From: Candidatus Peregrinibacteria bacterium
GTDB taxonomy: Bacteria > Patescibacteriota > Gracilibacteria > Peribacterales > Peribacteraceae
Length of the DNA stretch: 64,000 nt
Direction: 5' to 3'
Assembly (NCBI GenBank): GCA_016186175.1
Contig: JACPMB010000003.1
Coordinates: forward strand, 8,508 to 72,507
Both the position numbers and the translations under genes were made by a program. The notes under the pieces were generated by a model. The model saw nothing but the letters and a program-made list of their open reading frames with translations, was not told the DNA's origin and made no database searches. Of the stretch, positions 7,021 through 43,255 are shown one piece after another. The stretch's first letter is position 1; the number at the start of each line of letters is the position of its first letter.

Positions 7021-7076
7021 GTCCCTCGTACGCTAGCCCTTCGACTACGCTCGGGGCGAGCTACTCGGGACGACAC
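7021..7076 (-). repeat. Nested REP-like element (GTCGTCCCGAGTAGC family enclosing CCCGAGCGTAGTCGAAGGG)
   Basis: GTCCCTCGTACG...CCCTTCGACTACGCTCGGGG...CTACTCGGGACGAC; related ends at 14529, 27322, 41322 and 58778. Confidence 0.75.
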
Positions 7077-27961: not shown

Positions 27962-28840
27962 ATGAGATCACTGTCAGTTTCATTCGCAGCTTTTCTGTTT
28001 GCGGCATCGCTCGCCGGATGTGCGGGGCTAACCGCGGACAAAACTCCACGGCAGCCGGCAACCGATTCGGGCGCGACAGTCGGTGAAGCACGCGGGAGCA
28101 CTTCGACTGTGCTCAGTGTAAACAAGCCCCCGCGCTTCACCCTGAGCTCGCCCCTGAAGGACAACATCATTCATGACGCGGCTGCCCATTCGAGCCTGAG
28201 AGGCCCGCAGCAGGGCCTTCGCACGGCAAGCAGCCGCGCTTTGTCGAAGGGCAAACTCGACTATGCCAGTGTTCTGGAACTGGCTATGAACGGGAACCAC
28301 GACGCCGAATTCGAACTTGGCGCCATGTTCCACGACGGTGACGGAGTCGGTCGGGATTTCGGCAAGGCACTTGAGTGGTACAGAAAAGCCGCATCTGCCG
28401 GCAATCGCCAGGCCGCGTTCAATCTCGGATTGATGCTCCAAAACGGCGAAGGCGCCGGCGCCGATCCCGACGCGGCCCGCAACTGGTTCATCCGCGCGTC
28501 GGATGCCGGAGACGCGCGCGGCGCGCTGCAACTCGGCACGATGGCGTATGCGGAAAAGGATTATTCGAAGGCGCTCTCCTACTTCCTTAAATCTGCGGGG
28601 CAGGGGCTAGCCGATGCGCAGATGAACGTCGGAATCATGCATATTCGCGGCGAAGGCGTGCCGTCGCAGGATCTCGTCGGTGGATACGCGTGGCTGACAC
28701 TGTCCAAAGAAGGCGGCAATCAGCGCGCGGCGGCGATGCTGGATGGTCTTTCTGGGAAGATGACGGAGGAACAGAAAATGGAAGGCAAAGCGAAGGCGCA
28801 GGAACTGGGAGCAGAGGTGAACGAGGCTGTGGGGGACTAG
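27962..28840 (+). CDS. Lipoprotein with SEL1-like repeats, carrying an in-frame repeat insertion
   Basis: LAGC lipobox; repeats such as AEFELGAMFHDGDGV...ALEWYRKAA. Confidence 0.88.
   Translation: MRSLSVSFAAFLFAASLAGCAGLTADKTPRQPATDSGATVGEARGSTSTVLSVNKPPRFTLSSPLKDNIIHDAAAHSSLRGPQQGLRTASSRALSKGKLDYASVLELAMNGNHDAEFELGAMFHDGDGVGRDFGKALEWYRKAASAGNRQAAFNLGLMLQNGEGAGADPDAARNWFIRASDAGDARGALQLGTMAYAEKDYSKALSYFLKSAGQGLADAQMNVGIMHIRGEGVPSQDLVGGYAWLTLSKEGGNQRAAAMLDGLSGKMTEEQKMEGKAKAQELGAEVNEAVGD
28081..28251 (+). repeat. Structured element copy 1 (in frame in the SEL1 gene)
   Basis: Near-identical to 33734-33875, with an extra CTTCGACTGTGCTCAGTGT REP in the first loop. Confidence 0.9.
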
Positions 28841-28851
28841 GGGTGAGGGGC

Positions 28852-30966
28852 TTACATGAACAGCGCCGCAAGAGCCAATGTCAGCGTCGAGAACAGCTTA
28901 ATCAGAACGTGGAGCGACGGCCCGGCGGTATCCTTGAAAGGATCTCCGACTGTGTCGCCGGTGACCGCCGCTTGGTGCGCGTGGCTGCGCTTGCCGCCGT
29001 GGATGCCGCCTTCGATGTACTTTTTCGCGTTGTCCCACGCACCGCCGGCGTTGTTGAGGTACGCAGCCAGAATGACGCCGACAATCGTGCCTACCATCAG
29101 GAGCCCGGCGACCGCCTCCTTTCCCAGGACGACGCCGACAAGGATTGGCGAGACAACCGCGACGATGCCCGGCATGATCATCTCCTTCAGCGCCGCGCGC
29201 GTGGAAATATCCACAGCTGCCGCGTAGTCTGGGTCCTCAGTGCCGCGCATGATCCCCGCCTTCTCCTTGAACTGGCGGCGGACCTCATGGACGATAACCG
29301 ACGCCGCGCGGCCGACCGCACGGATGGTGAGCGACGTGAAGAAGAACACCACCATGGCGCCGATGAACGCGCCAACGAAAACTTTGACATTTGCCAGATC
29401 AACGACCTCAAACTGCGCCTCCGTCAGATACGCGGAGAAAAGCAGAAAGGCCGCGAGCGCCGCCGAACCCACGGCATATCCCTTCGTGAGCGCCTTGGTT
29501 GTGTTTCCGGCGGCATCCAGCTCGTCGGTGACTTTTCGCATTTCCTCCGGCGCCTTGGACATCTCGACTATGCCTCCCGCGTTGTCCGTGATCGGTCCGA
29601 ACATATCCATCGAAAGGACATAGCCGACGACCGCCAGCATGCCCATGGTCGCTACGGCCGTCCCGTAAAGCGCGCCGCCATCGATCCCCGTTTGCTCGCC
29701 CAACCAGTACGCGCAGAAGAGCGCTACGCAGACCGTCAGCACAGTAAGACCGGTGGACTCCATGCCAATCGCCGTGCCGGAGATGATGTTAGTCGCGTGT
29801 CCCGTCGTCGAGGCGTCCGCAATGGACTGCACTGGGCGGTACTCCTTGCTTGTGTAGTAATCCGTGATGTAGACGAAAGCAACGGAGGTCAGGACGCCGA
29901 CCAGTCCGGCAAGAAAGTACCAAATCGCGGAATCGCTGAATATCGCAGGCAGGTCGTCGTGCAATATATCCGTCGGCGCGTTGAGCATCCAGCGCGAGCA
30001 AAAGTACAGGGCGATTGTCGTAAGGACGGCCGTGACCCAGAATCCGCGCGTCATCGCGCGCATGGGATTCTTCTCAGTATCTTTCGCCGAGACGGTGTAC
30101 ACTCCTATAATCGCAGCTACGAGCCCTATGGATCGCAGAACGAGCGGAAAGAGCACACCTTTGACGCCGAAGTACGGCACCAGCGCGACGCCGAGGATCA
30201 TCGCGCCGATGTTCTCGGCGGAGATGGATTCAAAGAGATCCGCGCCGCGCCCGGCGCAGTCGCCGACGTTATCGCCGACGAGATCGGCCACTACGGCCGG
30301 ATTGCGCGGATCATCCTCTGGTATGCCAGCCTCGATCTTGCCGACCAGATCCGCGCCGACGTCCGCCGCTTTCGTGTAAATCCCTCCACCGAGCTGCGCG
30401 AAAAGCGCCACGAAGCTCGCGCCGAAGCCGTACCCGACAATCAGCTTCGGGATGTCGGCTACGTCCAGCAGGAACACGAACTTGTAGAAGAGGTATAGAC
30501 CGCTGATTCCGAGCAGACTCAAGGCCGTGATAACGATCGCGGGGACCGCACCTCCACGCAGGGCCATCTGCAATGCACTATTGAGACCGCCTTTGGCCGC
30601 CGCCGCGCACTTGAGGTTGACGCGCGTTGCAACACGCATGCTCACCACTCCCGCGAGGCCGGATAAGAGCGCCCCCAAAAGGAACGCCGCCCCAGTCTCG
30701 ACGCCGTGTGTCCACGCACTCTCATCGCTGCCAGTAAGTCCGTAGAGCACCACTATCAAGACTGCAACGATGACGGTGAGGACTGCGATCGCCTGATACT
30801 GACGACGTATGAACGCCTGCGCCCCCGTACGGATCGCGTTGGCGACTTTTTTCATCTCATGCGTGCCGTCAGGCGCGTACTTGACCTGGTTCCAGAATAC
30901 GAGTGAATACAGGAGGCCGGCGATCGCTACGACAGGCGCGAAGAATTCGAGAAGATAGGAGGACAT
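28852..30966 (-). CDS. hppA: Membrane-bound pyrophosphatase, K+-independent type
   Basis: [34 protein letters not shown] (Lys indicates K+-independent), [14 protein letters not shown]. Confidence 0.96.
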
Positions 30967-31103
30967 AGAAATGGGAGTAATGCCGATATTCGGATGAAAT
31001 TACCTGGGGCTGTTGCCCTGGAAGTGCGTAAAGACTAAAGATTTGAGCTTGGAAGTCAATGTACACGGCCTTTCGTTCACGGACGGAGCTATTATGTCAC
31101 CGT

Positions 31104-33284
31104 ATGGTTTCGACAGAGGAAGACAGGCTGTCCAATCTTCGCAAGCGAGTCGCCAGGGCGCCGCAGGATCCTGGCGTGTATAAATGGCTGGATGACAACG
31201 GACGCGTTCTGTACGTCGGAAAGGCGAAGAATTTGAGGAAGAGATTGAGCTCATACGTGCGATCGGCGCCACCACTAGGGCCGTGGAAGGAATCGTTCAT
31301 GCGGCAGATCGTCGATTTCGACGTGCTGGTCGCGACGTCCGAATTCGAAGCGCTGATTCTCGAAACGAATTTGATAAAGCAGCTGCGGCCCAAATACAAC
31401 GTCCTGATGAAGGACGACAAGAATCATATCTTCATCCGCGTCTCCGTACAGGATTCTTATCCGTCCGTCGCGACTGTCCGGCGATTCGAGCAGGACGGCG
31501 CAAGGTATTTCGGGCCGTACATGAACGGCGATGAAGTCAATCAGACGCTCGATCTGCTGCACGAAGCCGTCGGCTATCGCGCGTGCGCGCAGTCAATAGC
31601 AGCCATGAACAGGGGCGGGCGGGCGGTGCGTCCGTGCCTGGAATTCCAGATAGGCAGGTGCAACGGGCTGTGCGCCGGAAAAATCACGAAAGACGAATAC
31701 AGAAACCGGATTGATCAGATGGTTTCGTTTCTGAAGGGGCAAAAGGATTCAATCAAAAGCATCCTACTCGAGCGGATGCGCGCCGCAGCCGATGATCGCA
31801 AGTTCGAGCTTGCCGCGAAGCTGCGCAATTACATCGGCCTCATCGAAGGCGGAGCCGACGACAAACAGGTGGCCGCAGACGGCACCGGAGAAAATTCCGA
31901 CATTCTCGGCGTCGCAATATCAAGCAACCGCGCACACGTGACAATTCTGCACCGCCGCAACGGACGCTTGGTCGGCGAGTCGCATTTTGCGTTATCAGGC
32001 CATCCGGAATCCGCCGCATCGGTCCTTGAACAATTCATCCCGCAATACTACGACGACGGGCGCGAGATCCCGGAAGCAATAATCATTTCCGAAGCTCCGC
32101 CCGACGACGGCAAAGTGATTGAAATTCTTCTGAGGGAACGACGGAAAAAAGCGGCGCGGCTGATCGTTCCGGAGCGCGGAAAAAAATCAAGATTGCTGCA
32201 ACTCGCGGAACGAAACGCGCGCGAGCAAGCGCGCCAGATGGAACTCAAATGGGAAACGGAAGAACGCAATACCACAGGCGCGCTCGCGGAGCTTGCGGAG
32301 GCGCTCGCACTCCCAGCGCCGCCGCAGAGAATCGAAGGATATGACATCAGTCACCTGGGGGGGACGGAGACAGTCGGTTCTATGGTCGTCATAAAAGATG
32401 GCCGGGCGTCCAATGATCAGTACCGTTCATTCATCATCCGTACTATGCAGAGCGGCGAAGTGGATGACTGCAAGGCGATGAAAGAAGTGCTTACGAGACG
32501 ACTGCGGAGACTCACGGAGAATGTGCGCGGGGAAGAGAATAAATGGAATACGGAAGGAATCACGTTCGGAAAGGCCTTGAAGAAGGATCAGGCGGAGATC
32601 GAGCGGATCCACGCCGCGAACACAGACGATATGGAGAATTCCAACGTCCGTTGCGGCAACTGCATCGTTGCGCGTCACGATGGATCAATCGTCGGTTTCG
32701 GCCGGATATACAAGCATCCTAAGAGCATCATGGAGCTGGAATCCGTCTGGGTGGACGAACCGTTCCGCGGAGGAAAGCTAGGCCAATTAATCGCCCGAAA
32801 ACTCCTGCGCATGATCAAGAAAGGCAAGGTGTACTCCAAAGTGCAACCCGAATTGGAGCAATATTACGCGGATATTGGATTCCGATACATCATAACCACG
32901 CCAAAAGAACTCCTCCGTCCATCCGCGAAAAGAAAATGTCGAACGGCGAGGGTTGTGATGATGTGGGAGTCCAGCCGCAATAAAACGGACGCATCGCTCT
33001 CGTCGAAACCAGACCTTATAGTCGTTGACGGCGGCAAGGGACAGCTAAATGCCGCAGACGGCGTCGTGAAGTCATTCGGTCTCGACATTCCGGTGGTCGC
33101 TTTGGCCAAGCGCGAGGAGGAAATTTTCGCTCAGGGGCGATCAAGCAAGATCGCATGCCCCGATGAATCACCAGCGAAGTTCCTGTTGATGCGGTTGCGC
33201 GACGAGGCGCACCGCTTTGCAAACGCGCATCGCGTGAAGCGGACGATCAATGCAATCAAATCGCCGCATGGAAAAGCGAAATGA
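31104..33284 (+). CDS. uvrC: Excinuclease ABC subunit C with inserted GNAT-like domain
   Basis: PGVY..YVGKAKNLRKR, RIEGYDISH, PDLIVVDGGKGQ, LRDEAHRFA; insert contains VWVDEPFRGGKLGQ. Confidence 0.93.
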   Translation: MVSTEEDRLSNLRKRVARAPQDPGVYKWLDDNGRVLYVGKAKNLRKRLSSYVRSAPPLGPWKESFMRQIVDFDVLVATSEFEALILETNLIKQLRPKYNVLMKDDKNHIFIRVSVQDSYPSVATVRRFEQDGARYFGPYMNGDEVNQTLDLLHEAVGYRACAQSIAAMNRGGRAVRPCLEFQIGRCNGLCAGKITKDEYRNRIDQMVSFLKGQKDSIKSILLERMRAAADDRKFELAAKLRNYIGLIEGGADDKQVAADGTGENSDILGVAISSNRAHVTILHRRNGRLVGESHFALSGHPESAASVLEQFIPQYYDDGREIPEAIIISEAPPDDGKVIEILLRERRKKAARLIVPERGKKSRLLQLAERNAREQARQMELKWETEERNTTGALAELAEALALPAPPQRIEGYDISHLGGTETVGSMVVIKDGRASNDQYRSFIIRTMQSGEVDDCKAMKEVLTRRLRRLTENVRGEENKWNTEGITFGKALKKDQAEIERIHAANTDDMENSNVRCGNCIVARHDGSIVGFGRIYKHPKSIMELESVWVDEPFRGGKLGQLIARKLLRMIKKGKVYSKVQPELEQYYADIGFRYIITTPKELLRPSAKRKCRTARVVMMWESSRNKTDASLSSKPDLIVVDGGKGQLNAADGVVKSFGLDIPVVALAKREEEIFAQGRSSKIACPDESPAKFLLMRLRDEAHRFANAHRVKRTINAIKSPHGKAK

Positions 33285-33409
33285 CAGGCGCAGTCCGCCG
33301 CAGGAATCACACGAAAGGCCGACGTGTAATGAAACCGTTGGTTTTTTTTGGCGATTTTTTTGCACTTCTTTCAAAAACGACTACACTGCAGCCATCTTAC
33401 TCTCAGATT

Positions 33410-33739
33410 ATGCGCAAATTCTCTCTACTGCTCGGCACTCTCGGAGGCGCGCTCGCCGGTTACATACTGAGCAACGAAAGACTGCGCAAGCAAATGGCGA
33501 GCGCACCCAACGCCGAGGCGATGGCCAAGCTGCTCGGTCAGCAACTCACGAAAGACGGAAGAAAAGTCGCTAAGGAAGTGAAGGGATTTGTGGAGAGCGA
33601 GGACGTGCAGAATAATCTCAAGAAAGCGAAGGCATTCGCCAGCCAGAAGCTCGGATCCGCACAGAAGGAATTGAAAAAGTACGCGAAAAAGGGCTACAGG
33701 GAGGCGAAGAAGTATGCCACAGGCATGATTTCGCGGTGA
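33410..33739 (+). CDS. Small YtxH-like membrane-anchored protein
   Basis: LGTLGGALAGY anchor followed by a basic helical tail. Confidence 0.7.
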   Translation: MRKFSLLLGTLGGALAGYILSNERLRKQMASAPNAEAMAKLLGQQLTKDGRKVAKEVKGFVESEDVQNNLKKAKAFASQKLGSAQKELKKYAKKGYREAKKYATGMISR

Positions 33740-33875
33740 AGCGCGGAGGCAAGCACCCGCGCTTCACCCTGAGTTCGCCCCCGAAAGACAACATCATTCA
33801 TGACGCGACTGCCCATTCGGGCCTGAGAGGCCCTCAGGGCCTTCGAACGGCAAGCAGTCGCGCTTTGTCGAAGGG
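33734..33875 (+). repeat. Structured element copy 2 (upstream of pyrG)
   Basis: Near-identical to 28081-28251. Confidence 0.9.
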
Positions 33876-33932
33876 TGACAGTTGCGCGTCAAAGCAAAGA
33901 CGCGGCATTGCAAGGCAGAAAAAACCGAGTAA

Positions 33933-35720
<1,788 letters not shown>

Positions 35721-40720: not shown

Positions 40721-41635
40721 ATGTCGATCCCCCTTCAGAGCCGGCTCCCCAGAACCTATCGGATCAAACATGTAAAACAGGAAACCGAAATGGTGCGCAC
40801 ATTCACGTTCGACGGCTCGCTGGGCGCGAAACCCGGACAGTTCGCGATGGTGTGGCTGCCTGGAGCGGACGAGGTGCCGATGAGCGTCGCCTGCGACGAC
40901 GGCGCGACCACGCGGATCACATTTTTTGCCGCCGGCGGCATGACGAATGAGCTGGCAAAACTCCGCGTTGGCGATCTCGCGGGGCTGCGCGGGCCGTTCG
41001 GCACGCATTACGAATGGGAACGCGGCCAGCATATCGTCCTTGTAGCTGGAGGATACGGCGCTGCGCCGATGTACTTCGTCGCGAAGGAGACGGCCATGCA
41101 CGACTGCACTCTGGATGTGATCGTCGGCGCGCGGAGCAATGATCACCTGTTGTACGTGGAGGAGCTGGAATCGCTCCCGCACGTGTCGCTCCATCTCGCG
41201 ACCGACGACGGATCCGCAGGGCACAAGGGATTCGGCACCGACATTTTGGAAAAGTTGTTAAGTTCGTGCCACCGACCGGCTGCGGCCCGACCCATAGATG
41301 CGACATCCGCTCCGCGGATTTCTACTCGGAGTGACAACGGAAAGTGCAGTCCTATTGATCAGATCTTTGGTTGTGGGCCCGAAATGATGTTGAAGCGCAT
41401 TAGTGAGATGTGCGCGAAATATGAGGTTACTGCGCAGCTTTCCATGGAACGCTACATGAAGTGCGGGTACGGACTGTGCGGGAACTGCGTTATGGATCCG
41501 CTTGGCATACGCATCTGCAAGGAAGGGCCCGTGGTAAGCAACGAGGTTCTGCTGCAATTGACGGAATTCGGGAAATACTACCGCGATGATCTGGGCAAAA
41601 AACACAGCTTCGACGCTATCAGGAAACAGCGATAA
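40721..41635 (+). CDS. pyrK: Dihydroorotate dehydrogenase electron transfer subunit
   Basis: PGQFAM, RGPFG, AGGYGAAP, CGPEMML, MKCGYGLCGNC...CKEGPV. Confidence 0.92.
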   Translation: MSIPLQSRLPRTYRIKHVKQETEMVRTFTFDGSLGAKPGQFAMVWLPGADEVPMSVACDDGATTRITFFAAGGMTNELAKLRVGDLAGLRGPFGTHYEWERGQHIVLVAGGYGAAPMYFVAKETAMHDCTLDVIVGARSNDHLLYVEELESLPHVSLHLATDDGSAGHKGFGTDILEKLLSSCHRPAAARPIDATSAPRISTRSDNGKCSPIDQIFGCGPEMMLKRISEMCAKYEVTAQLSMERYMKCGYGLCGNCVMDPLGIRICKEGPVVSNEVLLQLTEFGKYYRDDLGKKHSFDAIRKQR

Positions 41636-41706
41636 AATGCGGAATATCGTGCCGAATGGCAGAATGGCAGTTTGCATATTTAGCATAATTATGTTATAGT
41701 ATCTAA

Positions 41707-41822
41707 GTCATCTTCTGATCGATCTCCTCCGATCGTCCCACATGGTGACATCTATACCGTCGCAAGACGGATTAACAAACATCAACCGTCATCTGCAGTC
41801 GTAGGCGACGGTTTTTGTTTTT
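41707..41822 (+). ncRNA. Candidate small RNA (or 20-aa ORF) between a promoter and a terminator
   Basis: TTGCAT-N17-TATAGT at 41672-41700; CCGTC GCAA GACGG hairpin; AACCGTC...GACGGTT terminator with T-tract. Confidence 0.5.
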
Positions 41823-41932
41823 CCGCAGAAAAACCCTGAGCGAGCTGCCAAGCATTGCAAATCTCGGACGCGGCGAGTCGAAGGGCTTTTCCGCAGAAAA
41901 ACCCTGAGCGAGCTGCCAGGCAAATCGAAGGA
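41819..41932 (+). repeat. Tandem 32-bp direct repeat built on CCCTGAGCGAG...TCGAAGG REP elements
   Basis: TTTTCCGCAGAAAAACCCTGAGCGAGCTGCCA at 41819-41850 and 41887-41918. Confidence 0.85.
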
Positions 41933-42019
41933 TGCTTTTGTCACTCGTCAAGTTGGAGTGCTAGACAAAAGTCAGGACAGATACTATTATCCACTCTCTA
42001 CTTTTTTCCCATTTCATTT

Positions 42020-42076
42020 ATGTCAGCATATAGTTGTTCCGGAGGCGGCGGATGCGGAGGCGGCTGCAGCCACTGA
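42020..42076 (+). CDS. 18-aa Cys/Gly-rich micropeptide MSAYSCSGGGGCGGGCSH
   Basis: TAGACA-N17-TATTAT promoter (41962-41990), pyrimidine-rich UTR like those of rplL and the LIV binding protein gene, terminator downstream. Confidence 0.55.
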   Translation: MSAYSCSGGGGCGGGCSH

Positions 42077-42106
42077 TTTATCGCCGATGTATTCGTCAGA
42101 AAATAG

Positions 42107-42138
42107 GGTTCGCGTGCGTACAACGCGGGCCCTTTTGG
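42107..42138 (+). terminator. Intrinsic terminator after the micropeptide
   Basis: AGGGTTCGCGT/ACGCGGGCCCT stem followed by a short T-tract. Confidence 0.65.
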
Positions 42139-42211
42139 TTGCACAATAGCCCGCATAATTTGATGCGGCTTGCTTCTTGACACATAACAGAAAAGGTATT
42201 TAATTAACTGC

Positions 42212-43255
42212 ATGACTGAAACACGCCGCGAATGCGAGGATGAGCCGATACAGGCAACATTCGACAAATTGGTGGATGAATGTCTATCCACGGCGGAAAA
42301 ACTGGGTGTGAGCATTAAGCATCAAAATGCGCTCTCCATCTGGCTGTGCAAAGGCCTGGATTCAGGCTGGTCGAATGTCAAACAAATATTCGCAGAAGTA
42401 TGGCGCAAAACTGAAAAGGATTCAGTTATACGTGAGCAACTCAAGGCCGCCGTCCGCTCCATCGCATCTCAATTCTGCGATATTAACGCGTATTATATAG
42501 CTAAAGTTCTGTGCGAAACGACGGAGCAGGATCACGGAACGATGATTCTGGAACATGCGCGGGCGCACGGCGCGATTGATCCGATAAGCAAGGATGTCAA
42601 TCTTGATCTTGCGATGACAGTGGAGGAACGAGGCACTGCGCAAGAGATAGACAAGGTGCTTGCTTTGAAATTGCCAATGAGCGGAGGCTTCGACGATATA
42701 CACGGACAGGTCAAAGATGTTCTGGAAAACATCTGGCGTTTGCTCAAAACATACACCAGGCATCTACAACTGCCATCACGACACGGCAATGTTTATCAAT
42801 TGTTGTTTCCGACGGCGGCTTTGCAGCTGCACGAACAGAACTACGATATTGCAATCGGGGTGCTCCATGGCGGAGCGAATATCGTCAATTATATGCACCC
42901 TCTTGGTCAGAACTCCGGTTATCTGGAATGGCACAGGCACTGGCAGCGCAATCCAACATGGATTACAAAAAATAGGACAGAGATAAGGAAGGGCATGAGA
43001 GTGCTACTGTGCGAGAATGATGCGTGTTCCGGAGATACTTTGATCAATGTGATGCGCAAGCTGGATTCTATTTCTCCGTCGTCGGTGGACGTGTGTTTTA
43101 CAGGCATAAGGCACAAAGCAAGCAAAGATGTTGCCGGTAAAATGAATGCTTTCGGCCGGATCATGCACCTCACTGACCTGAGCAGTGAAAGAATTTTTTC
43201 AGACATGTTGAAGTACAAGCAATTGCTGACGGATGTCATGGCCGGTACGGAGTGA
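42212..43255 (+). CDS. Hypothetical protein with C-terminal phosphoribosyltransferase-like domain
   Basis: IAIGVLHGG and RVLLCENDACSGDTL resemble type I PRTase motifs; visibly more AT-rich than the core genes. Confidence 0.65.
   Translation: MTETRRECEDEPIQATFDKLVDECLSTAEKLGVSIKHQNALSIWLCKGLDSGWSNVKQIFAEVWRKTEKDSVIREQLKAAVRSIASQFCDINAYYIAKVLCETTEQDHGTMILEHARAHGAIDPISKDVNLDLAMTVEERGTAQEIDKVLALKLPMSGGFDDIHGQVKDVLENIWRLLKTYTRHLQLPSRHGNVYQLLFPTAALQLHEQNYDIAIGVLHGGANIVNYMHPLGQNSGYLEWHRHWQRNPTWITKNRTEIRKGMRVLLCENDACSGDTLINVMRKLDSISPSSVDVCFTGIRHKASKDVAGKMNAFGRIMHLTDLSSERIFSDMLKYKQLLTDVMAGTE

Follow-up and report, generated by a model that had tools for sequence, protein, structure and literature searches.

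Eight copies of a nested-hairpin composite, probably a selfish palindromic DNA element, in a Candidatus Peregrinibacteria genome

Two related stretches in a lipoprotein gene and before pyrG

The window, i.e. the whole stretch of 64,000 nucleotides that was analysed here, carries two copies of a composite repeat on its plus strand. Copy 1 (28083–28254, 172 nt) lies within the gene of a SEL1-repeat lipoprotein (27962–28840, plus strand; Sel1 repeats at 93.5 bits in Pfam), where it is read in frame, as the initial annotation of this DNA had proposed, and provides ~57 linker residues (EARGSTST...SRALSKG) after the lipobox. Copy 2 (33736–33878, 143 nt) is located between pyrG and a gene of unassigned family encoding 152 aa (33281–33739, plus strand; no Pfam match). 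Bases 2–4 of this copy (TGA, 33737–33739) serve as the stop codon of the upstream gene, whose product is 3–6 residues shorter at its C-terminus than each of the five orthologues examined.

The two copies are 5.6 kb apart in direct orientation and ~92% identical. Near-identity had originally been described for 28081–28251 and 33734–33875, and it stands with boundaries that differ by 2–3 nt. Within the copies, an 88-nt match at 92% (28123–28210 = 33750–33837) is joined by a 41-nt match at 95% (28211–28251 = 33835–33875), the latter shifted relative to the former by the previously reported 3-nt indel, which reads GGCCCGCAGCAGGGCC in copy 1 and GGCCCTCAGGGCC in copy 2.

Copy 2 also opens a frame of its own, ORF 33736–33990 (plus strand). 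Its GTG overlaps the TGA of ORF 33281–33739 and its stop overlaps an ATG of the pyrG frame at 33987, both as first noted, but the ORF lacks a counterpart in congeners, in which the intergenic regions vary in length and content. For this reason, and because it crosses the conserved pyrG leader, sequence comparison indicates that it is most likely not a gene.

Copy number, boundaries and distribution

A profile search of the 904-kb genome with the element recovered exactly eight full copies of 143–176 nt at E-values from 2e-47 to 3e-22, which excludes chance as the source of the similarity. The composite thus occupies at least eight genomic sites, on contigs C1, C2, C38, C45 (two copies), C46 (two copies) and C47, and a degenerate relic is present on C30. 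The initial annotation had regarded a pair of copies only as a sign of simple local duplication and had called the element mobile; mobility is borne out by eight copies on six contigs, four of them at sites that are empty in orthologues or homologues.

The boundaries given above (GTGAAG ... GGGYRA) were set from the alignment of all eight copies, the flanks of which are mutually unrelated. No duplicated bases common to the flanks of the eight copies, i.e. no target-site duplication, were found, and the two ends of the element are not inverted copies of each other. The element moves as a single unit (GTGAAG ... GGGTRA) and does so without target-site duplication or terminal inverted repeats.

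The composite was not found in 40 related genomes, of which three contain sub-modules of at most 40 nt alone. Contigs from four DNA runs of one study end at the repeat, their joints correspond to the other genomic copies, none spans an empty site and they reveal no polymorphism between empty and filled sites, with the proviso that rare alleles are invisible in contigs. In a separate metagenome scan, a 26-nt core string had no match among contigs.

Modular architecture and base pairing

All eight copies fit one modular grammar of nested hairpins built around the short motif CCCTGAGC-N-GTCGAAGGG. In copy 1, hairpin A (28083–28140, plus strand) consists, in this order, of GTGAAG, a CA bulge, a 9-bp stem, a 24-nt loop insert, AA, the other arm of the 9-bp stem and CTTCAC, and a motif scan located a reversed short REP, CTTCGAC-TGT-GCTCAG (28101–28116), inside the loop insert (28100–28123). 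Hairpin C (28177–28238, plus strand) is formed by a 9-bp stem, CGCGGCTGC/GCAGCCGCG (28177–28185/28230–28238), around a 42-nt inner hairpin module that includes the three nucleotides extra to copy 1. The halves of a REP bracket this core, CACCCTGAGC at 28138–28147 and GTCGAAGGG at 28243–28251 (both plus strand). Such bracketing, part of the first description, applies to copy 1 with its CCCTGAGC and GTCGAAGGG, but copy 2 carries CCCTGAGT as the first half. The pattern CGCGGCnnC-AA-GnnGCCGCG-CTT is common to hairpins A and C, which are thus directly oriented to each other. A further module, B, occurs in three of the copies, while the remaining five have the layout without it.

That the element is structured, as had been suggested, is evident from the fact that every copy folds better than its dinucleotide shuffles, with z-scores of −2.5 to −6.0 as DNA and −1.9 to −4.8 as RNA. 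Base pairs were counted from a modular parse of the eight copies rather than from the MAFFT alignment, since in copies with the loop insert the latter misregisters hairpin A at its 5′ arm. Two compensatory events emerged from this count. One is the G-C to A-T exchange in hairpin C that had drawn attention to the locus: G28181-C28234 of copy 1 becomes A33808-T33858 in hairpin C of copy 2 (33804–33862, plus strand), where the stem reads CGCGACTGC/GCAGTCGCG (33804–33812/33854–33862). One fully compensated pair among the six substitutions of copy 2 has a chance probability of ~0.03. The other event lies in the 5′ hairpin (A), where three neighbouring pairs at the tip are exchanged between C-G and G-C. 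Yet, five mismatches in four copies are uncompensated, and the variant pairs include no G.T wobbles. The proposed selection for pairing is thus weakly supported, with pairing maintained loosely rather than strictly, and templated self-correction within DNA palindromes would yield an identical compensatory pattern without selection.

Insertions into genes and gene ends

Four insertion sites have an empty counterpart: those in the SEL1 lipoprotein, a large secreted protein and a methyltransferase, and that at the 3′ terminus of the gene preceding pyrG. The first three are the intragenic copies, all of them in frame, and the genes in question stay readable. Among the SEL1 orthologues with a readable N-terminus, 6/6 are without the insert and their linker runs directly into KL(S/D/G)(Y/L). 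For the secreted protein encoded on C38, the flanking segments adjoin in one relative (G009; query residues 4–110, then 164–261), and another (G007) has 6 aa where the query has 59.

The methyltransferase carries copy C2 in reverse orientation. A search for its orthologues within the genus at E 1e-10 returned none, and homologues were therefore taken from a large protein database; exactly the 55-aa block is missing from all nine that were aligned (249–255 aa vs 311 aa), with conserved flanks. A structure model predicts the core with pLDDT values of 86–96 and the insert (residues 56–108) as coil with values of 30–46, although low pLDDT is partly expected there because the alignment is empty over this segment. 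C2 is the sole copy open in frame −1, the frame used by the methyltransferase, since two C2-unique substitutions remove both stops present in the other four copies that lack module B.

Both the SEL1 and the C38 protein read the frame EARG...PRFTLSSPLKDNIIHDAAAHSGLRGPQGLRTASSRALSKG on the opposite strand. Five copies are open in this frame, and the three copies with module B carry stops in it. The canonical element is open in one frame per strand. Inside genes it survives when inserted in frame into a linker or loop, whereupon host selection holds the frame open; the 3-nt length of the copy 1 indel was noted in favour of such selection. The preserved reading frame of the initial annotation is kept where the element sits in a gene, but is a property of the host genes and not of the element.

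The remaining five copies are found at or just after gene ends. Two are intergenic and three merely supply a stop codon, with the GTGA at the element start overlapping the upstream stop, meaning that the first bases of the element (G-TGA-AG) turn into a stop codon. Overall, seven of the eight copies are co-oriented with the gene that they occupy or follow (two-sided P = 0.07).

The short motif inside and outside the composite

Of the 24 genomes of the family, 22 contain the short motif CCCTGAGC-N-GTCGAAGGG, a 23-nt form of which recurs nearly unchanged across many bacterial phyla. Sites of the form CTGAGC-N(0-160)-GTCGAAG number 36, against 3 in a reversed-genome control. Two further members of this group lie in the window: CCCTGAGC and GTCGAAGGG separated by a 35-nt insert and followed by a second partial unit (41834–41885, plus strand), in a region (41000–43000) where Tandem Repeats Finder reported no tandem repeat, and a variant, CCCCGAGC-GTA-GTCGAAGGG, on the minus strand at 7037–7056.

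Nesting is visible at several levels. The loop insert of hairpin A and module B each hold a reversed REP motif; a congener (G001) has hairpin A followed by a minimal REP with a 2-nt centre at the place of the ~92-nt core of the present genome; the inner module occurs by itself in two genomes (G018 and G028); and inverted doublets of the minimal motif are found in other phyla. In structural terms, the short motif consists of variable helices flanked by conserved unpaired bases, its minimal form having two helices. Outside the fixed 23 nt of the pan-bacterial hairpin, a 5′ T is nearly invariant and covariation is weak at position ±2 (43% Watson-Crick vs 29% in shuffles), with none farther out. 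Searches of Rfam, and of the non-paywalled literature with motif strings and translated peptides, found no name for the bracketing 23-nt motif, the literature matches being irrelevant or to primers only.

A more far-reaching reading, which we consider speculative and rather unlikely, takes the bracketing motif T-CACCCTGAGC-YT-GTCGAAGGGTG as the putative core of a pan-bacterial hairpin element that has so far gone undescribed. Additional hairpin modules would preferentially insert at its 2-nt centre, such that the element would grow by self-nesting. The eight-copy composite would then be one nested product that can now move as a whole and that proteins are acquiring as linkers and termini. Its agent would be an enzyme of the HUH type that acts on hairpins in single strands, and the Y1 domain embedded in LeuRS might be among such enzymes.

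Competing explanations

Taken by themselves, the spacing and direct orientation of the two window copies would fit a simple local duplication of a 140–170-nt segment within a 6-kb region, a reading refuted by the copy count: six more copies with unrelated flanks are found on five other contigs, leaving it practically no probability. The shared frame EARG...PRFTLSSPLKDNIIHDAAAHSGLRGPQGLRTASSRALSKG could also point to a protein-coding module, i.e. a peptide cassette common to several proteins and selected for its amino-acid sequence. This is very improbable given that the methyltransferase reads the opposite strand, that two copies are intergenic and three just provide a stop codon, that module B introduces stops, that the insert is predicted to be unstructured and that orthologues do without the segment. 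A functional structured RNA that acts in cis, be it a 3′-end stabiliser, a terminator or a small RNA, and is kept for this role, has somewhat more in its favour, namely the compensatory pair changes, the RNA folding scores, the five copies at or just past gene ends and a co-orientation of the kind that an RNA-level role would predict. We nevertheless hold it to be improbable: the three copies inside coding sequence are read through, one of them antisense; the hairpins are not followed by a T-run at their 3′ side; the variant pairs tolerate five mismatches and lack wobbles; the composite is restricted to one of the 41 genomes searched; and no Rfam family was matched on the eight loci at E = 0.05, one spurious snoRNA match aside. 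An Rfam scan extended to E-values up to 1 and to 20 REP loci from other phyla likewise gave no match at gathering score. This also bears on a self-cleaving ribozyme or other catalytic RNA, which the self-cleavage assay suggested in the initial annotation implies and which we judge to be extremely improbable. Its attraction lies in the conserved unpaired bases beside the variable helices of the short motif, but the scan met no ribozyme family and returned, beyond the snoRNA match, sub-threshold hits on either strand to generic models of long hairpins (microRNA precursors). A hammerhead-like reading of the unpaired bases was rejected because the minimal motif has just two helices and matched no ribozyme model.

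A further alternative is a REP/RAYT (REPIN-type) system, in which the hairpins would be recognised and copied by a RAYT-like tyrosine transposase (Y1). The search for transposase-like genes in the assembly, which is 82% complete, turned up no more than a Y1 domain within leuS, an rve-type gene on a contig of 1.5 kb and a tyrosine recombinase. The Y1 domain scores 51.2 bits on the NCBIfam model of REP-associated transposases and 54.6 bits on the IS200 model, but neither value reaches its curated threshold (80 and 55, respectively), and this sole Y1 sits inside LeuRS, an in-frame arrangement shared by four genera of the family. The leuS gene of the present genome has an apparent frameshift at an A-run, either genuine or due to assembly error. 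Across 41 genomes, a Y1 match was obtained in 27 of 28 with the short REP motif vs 5 of 13 without (Fisher P = 1e-4, the genomes being related and hence not independent samples). However, REP and Y1 counts correlate only weakly within the family alone (rho = 0.39, P = 0.054), one genome (G013) has six Y1 matches and no REP, and among the Y1 loci of relatives a REP-like site within 1.5 kb was seen at 1/31. While hairpins near both ends and the lack of inverted termini and target duplications agree with such a system, the two composite hairpins are direct rather than inverted. We therefore regard a REP/RAYT system proper as unlikely, even if an HUH/Y1 transposase is the best candidate mobiliser available, a putative and unproven one. 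No TnpB was found in the genome, and a profile search of it yielded no autonomous longer element with the same ends.

A palindromic element akin to known repeat families

Both window stretches probably represent a palindromic DNA element that is selfish and non-autonomous, a nested-hairpin composite that resembles a REP/BIME mosaic in its make-up and behaves like the palindromic elements of Rickettsia. The element would spread via a folded single-strand DNA intermediate and be moved by an enzyme acting in trans, with an HUH/Y1 transposase as a candidate, and its copies may later swap, gain or lose modules. We propose that the hairpins are retained because of this folded intermediate, either through selection on transposability or through self-templated palindrome repair. 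No evidence of a cellular function of the element was seen.

According to the MITE review PMC10969869, Rickettsia palindromic elements are ~150-bp palindromic repeats whose insertions into unrelated genes of a small genome are in frame, the added peptide being thought compatible with the fold. The present element, with its 143–176 nt, its 3/8 in-frame insertions with empty counterparts and an insert modelled as a disordered loop, would by this description be a close analogue. It differs in the opposite-strand reading of one insertion, in the stop codons that three copies provide and in the smaller REP-type modules nested within it.

BIMEs and REPINs are extragenic in what is generally described of them, a REPIN is an inverted pair of REPs, and the RAYT gene, present in a single copy, lies between its REPs. 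Short imperfect palindromes in mosaics, many copies per genome and Y1 genes in the lineage are common ground, whereas the genic location of three copies, the direct hairpins and the scarcity of REPs near Y1 loci set the present element apart. MIRUs (mycobacterial interspersed repetitive units) have ends that overlap the stop and start codons of flanking operon genes, much as GTGA does here at three upstream stops; they are, however, tandem minisatellite units and not hairpin mosaics, and the downstream mini-ORFs are not conserved in the present case. Palindrome-associated elements derived from IS200/IS605 carry hairpins near both ends and, like the element described here, have neither terminal inverted repeats nor target duplications. 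Yet, in such elements a fixed target of 4–5 nt immediately precedes the left end on its 5′ side, and an autonomous relative shares their ends, while here the bases before GTGAAG vary among copies and neither an autonomous relative nor TnpB was found. A classical MITE mobilised by a DDE enzyme differs by the very terminal inverted repeats and target-site duplications that the eight copies lack. Finally, the BOX elements of Streptococcus pneumoniae are modular, being composed of boxA, boxB and boxC, and share with the present composite, as do other modular MITE-like repeats, a few module types in variable number; here, though, the modules show self-similarity, one motif being nested within them in either orientation, and relatedness is unsupported. 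Open reading frames within repeats are not confined to the present case; the MITE review (PMC10969869) notes them in ERIC elements located inside genes and in BOX elements of large size.

Implications

The principle is not new, and the composite adds an example to a type of element known in other bacteria. The part most deserving of dedicated study is the 23-nt bracketing motif. In practical terms, the element explains why assemblies of such genomes break and why their annotations contain ‘repeat peptides’ and spurious small ORFs, and it can provide strain markers. For the organism itself, the finding means that recently active hairpin DNA of a selfish kind persists even in the very small genome of a bacterium from an uncultured lineage in groundwater, and that this DNA remodels proteins—the linker of a lipoprotein, a loop of a methyltransferase and the C-terminus encoded by another gene—without destroying them, a behaviour so far best documented in Rickettsia.

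A repeated composite of hairpins

The near-identical pair reported in the initial annotation is real: window positions 28123-28210 and 33750-33837 agree at 92% across 88 nt, a second block (28211-28251 and 33835-33875) agrees at 95% across 41 nt, and a 3-nt indel offsets the two blocks. The proposed stem swap holds as well, CGCGGCTGC/GCAGCCGCG in copy 1 becoming CGCGACTGC/GCAGTCGCG in copy 2, as do the bracketing REP halves, one formed by the final bases of hairpin A with CCTGAGC and the other by the terminal GTCGAAGGG. Comparison of eight copies set the element boundaries at 28083-28254 (copy 1) and 33736-33878 (copy 2).

Word-7 BLASTN and a profile HMM (E-values for the eight copies 2e-47 to 3e-22) located exactly eight full copies in the source assembly (904,290 bases, 48 contigs, 55% G+C, 81.7% complete), along with one 29-nt relic on contig C30. 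In this assembly the window corresponds to C45:8508-72507. On their contigs these copies occupy C45:36590-36761 (+; copy 1, or C45a), C45:42243-42385 (+; copy 2), C2:25101-25269, C38:68979-69123 (-), C46:2415-2559 (-), C46:22615-22787 (C46b), C1:44881-45054 (-) and C47:452-627 (-).

One modular grammar fits all eight. Hairpin A opens with GTGAAG and a CA bulge; a 9-bp stem closed by an AA loop follows, and CTTCAC ends the hairpin. Three copies (C45a, C2 and C1) have a 24-nt insert in the loop. After hairpin A come CCT, then module B, an optional 44-nt hairpin that C46b, C1 and C47 possess, and GAGY. A 29-nt spacer, extended to 32 nt in C47, leads to hairpin C, and CTTYGTCGAAGGGTRA closes the element. 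In hairpin C, a 9-bp stem (CGCGGCTGC ... AA GCAGCCGCG) encloses an inner hairpin module of 39-42 nt in five copies and 23 nt in two; C1 has none, and its minimal hairpin C is of the same design as hairpin A; the composite thus carries a pair of related hairpins that point the same way. The distribution of modules among the copies is reticulate: crossing loop insert with module B, hairpin A tip type with module B, or tip type with the core-flanking T..T or C..C bases gives every one of the four possible combinations, which implies that copies exchange segments or repeatedly gain and lose modules.

Insertion into genes and at gene ends

Comparison with counterpart loci indicates that the element is an insertion at four sites. 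Copy 1 lies, as first described, in frame within ORF 27962-28840, which encodes a Sel1-repeat protein bearing a lipobox, and the additional 3 nt of this copy preserve that frame. All six orthologues compared (G002, G003, G006, G007, G008 and G009; this count leaves out G001, where a contig end cuts the gene, and G004) lack the 57-residue stretch at their N-termini and pass from the lipobox through a short linker to KL(S/D/G)(Y/L). The C2 copy is reversed relative to a methyltransferase gene, and the 55 residues encoded by its reverse strand are exactly absent from each of nine aligned homologues (out of 47 in the database), in which the residues on either side are conserved. For a large secreted protein on C38, the flanks abut in G009, 59 residues are replaced by 6 in G007 and both flanks are matched in G004; no match was obtained in the remaining six congeners.

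The gene upstream of copy 2 has orthologues in all nine congeners, and the five examined end 3-6 residues later with different last residues; copy 2 has thus truncated the gene's own C-terminus and provides its stop codon. Copies on C46 and C47 act as stops in the same way, through G-TGA-AG. C46b comes after rpsP, whose tail extends into the element, and the C1 copy is located between convergent genes. ORF 33736-33990 does exist as annotated, opening with copy 2, its GTG overlapping the TGA of ORF 33281-33739 and its stop overlapping an ATG in the pyrG frame, but it is not conserved in the congeners, whose intergenic regions before pyrG differ in length and content save for the last ~70 nt.

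Each of the five copies lacking module B has one open forward frame, +3 (+1 in copy 2, where hairpin A is 2 nt shorter), and one open reverse frame; in the three that contain module B, only the reverse strand is open. Unlike the four other copies of its layout, C2 is also open in the methyltransferase frame, since two substitutions found only there abolish two stop codons that those four carry; this is direct evidence of a host gene being read through the element. In the AlphaFold model of the methyltransferase (core pLDDT 86-96), residues 56-108 form coil at pLDDT 30-46, although the alignment is empty there and low confidence is partly expected.

Two further features were noted in the window. 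The 741-aa UvrC ORF (31059-33284, +) contains a GNAT domain (Acetyltransf_1, residues 531-593, 35.5 bits), apparently inside the RNase H-like endonuclease domain, itself matched in two stretches. A pyrG leader (window ~33905-33985; orthologous leaders L184, L186 and L189) is conserved in the source genome, G001, G003 and G008. Its TAnAAT-like box and then CGGCGGGCTCC precede a variable stretch, after which come a GC-rich return arm and a T-run, an arrangement that looks like a transcription attenuator. Rfam returned no match at this locus, and in G001 a REP-like motif lies within the variable stretch.

Pairing in the hairpins

In hairpin C, copy 2 carries the one change that is fully compensated, and C47 the one mismatch. 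At the tip of hairpin A, three adjacent pairs read C-G in three copies and G-C in the remaining five, with four mismatches over three copies; no G.T pairs occur among the variant pairs of the eight copies. Placing copy 2's six substitutions at random would yield a compensated pair with P = 0.029. The weakest-folding copy is copy 1 (DNA z = -2.45). Pairing is favoured, but not strictly, and the data are equally compatible with selection acting on a folded intermediate of transposition and with correction of the palindrome from its own template.

The REP motif and the nesting of modules

The genome has 30 occurrences of GTCGAAGGG and 36 sites of the form CTGAGC-N(0-160)-GTCGAAG, versus 3 of the latter in the reversed genome. 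Insert lengths are discrete (2-3, 11, 18-20, 35 and 92-95 nt), the longest class being the core of the composite. The composite is self-similar, since both the loop insert of hairpin A and module B contain the motif in reverse orientation. In the congener G001 a minimal REP motif (2-nt centre) directly follows hairpin A, and the inner module of hairpin C is found alone in G018 and G028; the composite thus arose by the nesting of modules that occur on their own as well. CCTGAGC-N(2-20)-GTCGAAGG is present in 28 of the 41 genomes searched (source genome included), among them 22 of 24 other family members and all nine congeners, at up to 49 per genome (reversed-pattern control 0-1). Contig C10 begins (positions 1-100) within tandem repeats of a 39-nt unit containing the minimal REP; apart from this, repeats of that sort lie within 200 nt of 1 of 96 contig ends.

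A 23-nt hairpin, CACCCTGAGC-NN-GTCGAAGGGTG, with 21 fixed bases, is near-unchanged across many bacterial phyla, at no fewer than 125 loci (L054-L178) in a species-level genome collection versus a chance expectation of ~0.27. Among the matches listed are Dehalococcoidia, Eremiobacterota/Vulcanimicrobiota, Alpha-, Beta- and Gammaproteobacteria, Bacteroidota, Nitrospirota, Spirochaetota, Calditrichota, Clostridia, Acidobacteria and a Peribacteria MAG. In 136 instances the centre is TT (59) or CT (57) in 116, a 5′ T is nearly always present, and reverse copies frequently lie close by. No Rfam family was found for this form, and a literature search found no paper printing or naming its sequence.

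Mobilisation and relation to known repeats

None of the eight copies has target-site duplications or terminal inverted repeats, and the bases preceding GTGAAG vary. Together with hairpins near both ends, this gives the element a closer resemblance to HUH/Y1-type elements than to MITEs of the DDE type. A single Y1 domain was identified in the assembly (Pfam 63 bits, under both NCBIfam cut-offs), besides one tyrosine recombinase and, on a 1.5-kb contig, one rve-type transposase (C34:632-916, -; 76.9 bits, 336-aa open frame), the sole DDE-type transposase found, which is unrelated in sequence to the element; TnpB, DDE_Tnp_1, IS110 and DDE_3 gave no match. Across 41 genomes, which are related and not independent, Y1 and the REP motif are associated (cells 27, 1, 5, 8; Fisher P = 1e-4), though the rank correlation reaches only 0.39 within the family alone. 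Yet the RAYT hallmark is absent, a REP-like site lying within 1.5 kb of only 1 of 31 Y1 loci in relatives. A Y1 enzyme may mobilise the element, though this is less likely than not.

A Y1/HUH domain with conserved HUH motif and catalytic Tyr lies in frame within leucyl-tRNA synthetase (C26:26824-27222, -; L024/L046), where it separates the catalytic N-half from the CP1 editing domain. Relatives in three other genera (L047 in G012, L048 in G013, L049 in G023) have it in a continuous ORF of 1059-1077 aa, the Pfam order in G012 being tRNA-synt_1, Y1_Tnp (327-440) and the LeuRS editing domain (458-628). In the source genome, the N-terminal part of leuS is one base out of frame with the Y1-to-C-terminal part at an A6 run, which may be an assembly error, a true frameshift or a programmed one. 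In the same gene, a REP-type CCTGAGC-GTT-GTCGAAGG (C26:25949-25966, -) is translated in frame as PPALSVVEGIGG, in a loop that is hypervariable among relatives.

Population data came from the contigs of four DNA runs, all from a single groundwater study and three of them possibly the source of the assembly; no RNA run was listed as carrying the region. These contigs break at the repeat, and the only joins are to other genomic copies.

The element fails the defining features that were tested for the REPIN/RAYT system, for classical MITEs and for IS200/IS605 derivatives. Its architecture is similar to that of REP/BIME mosaics, and its behaviour matches, by description, that of Rickettsia palindromic elements as summarised in PMC10969869.
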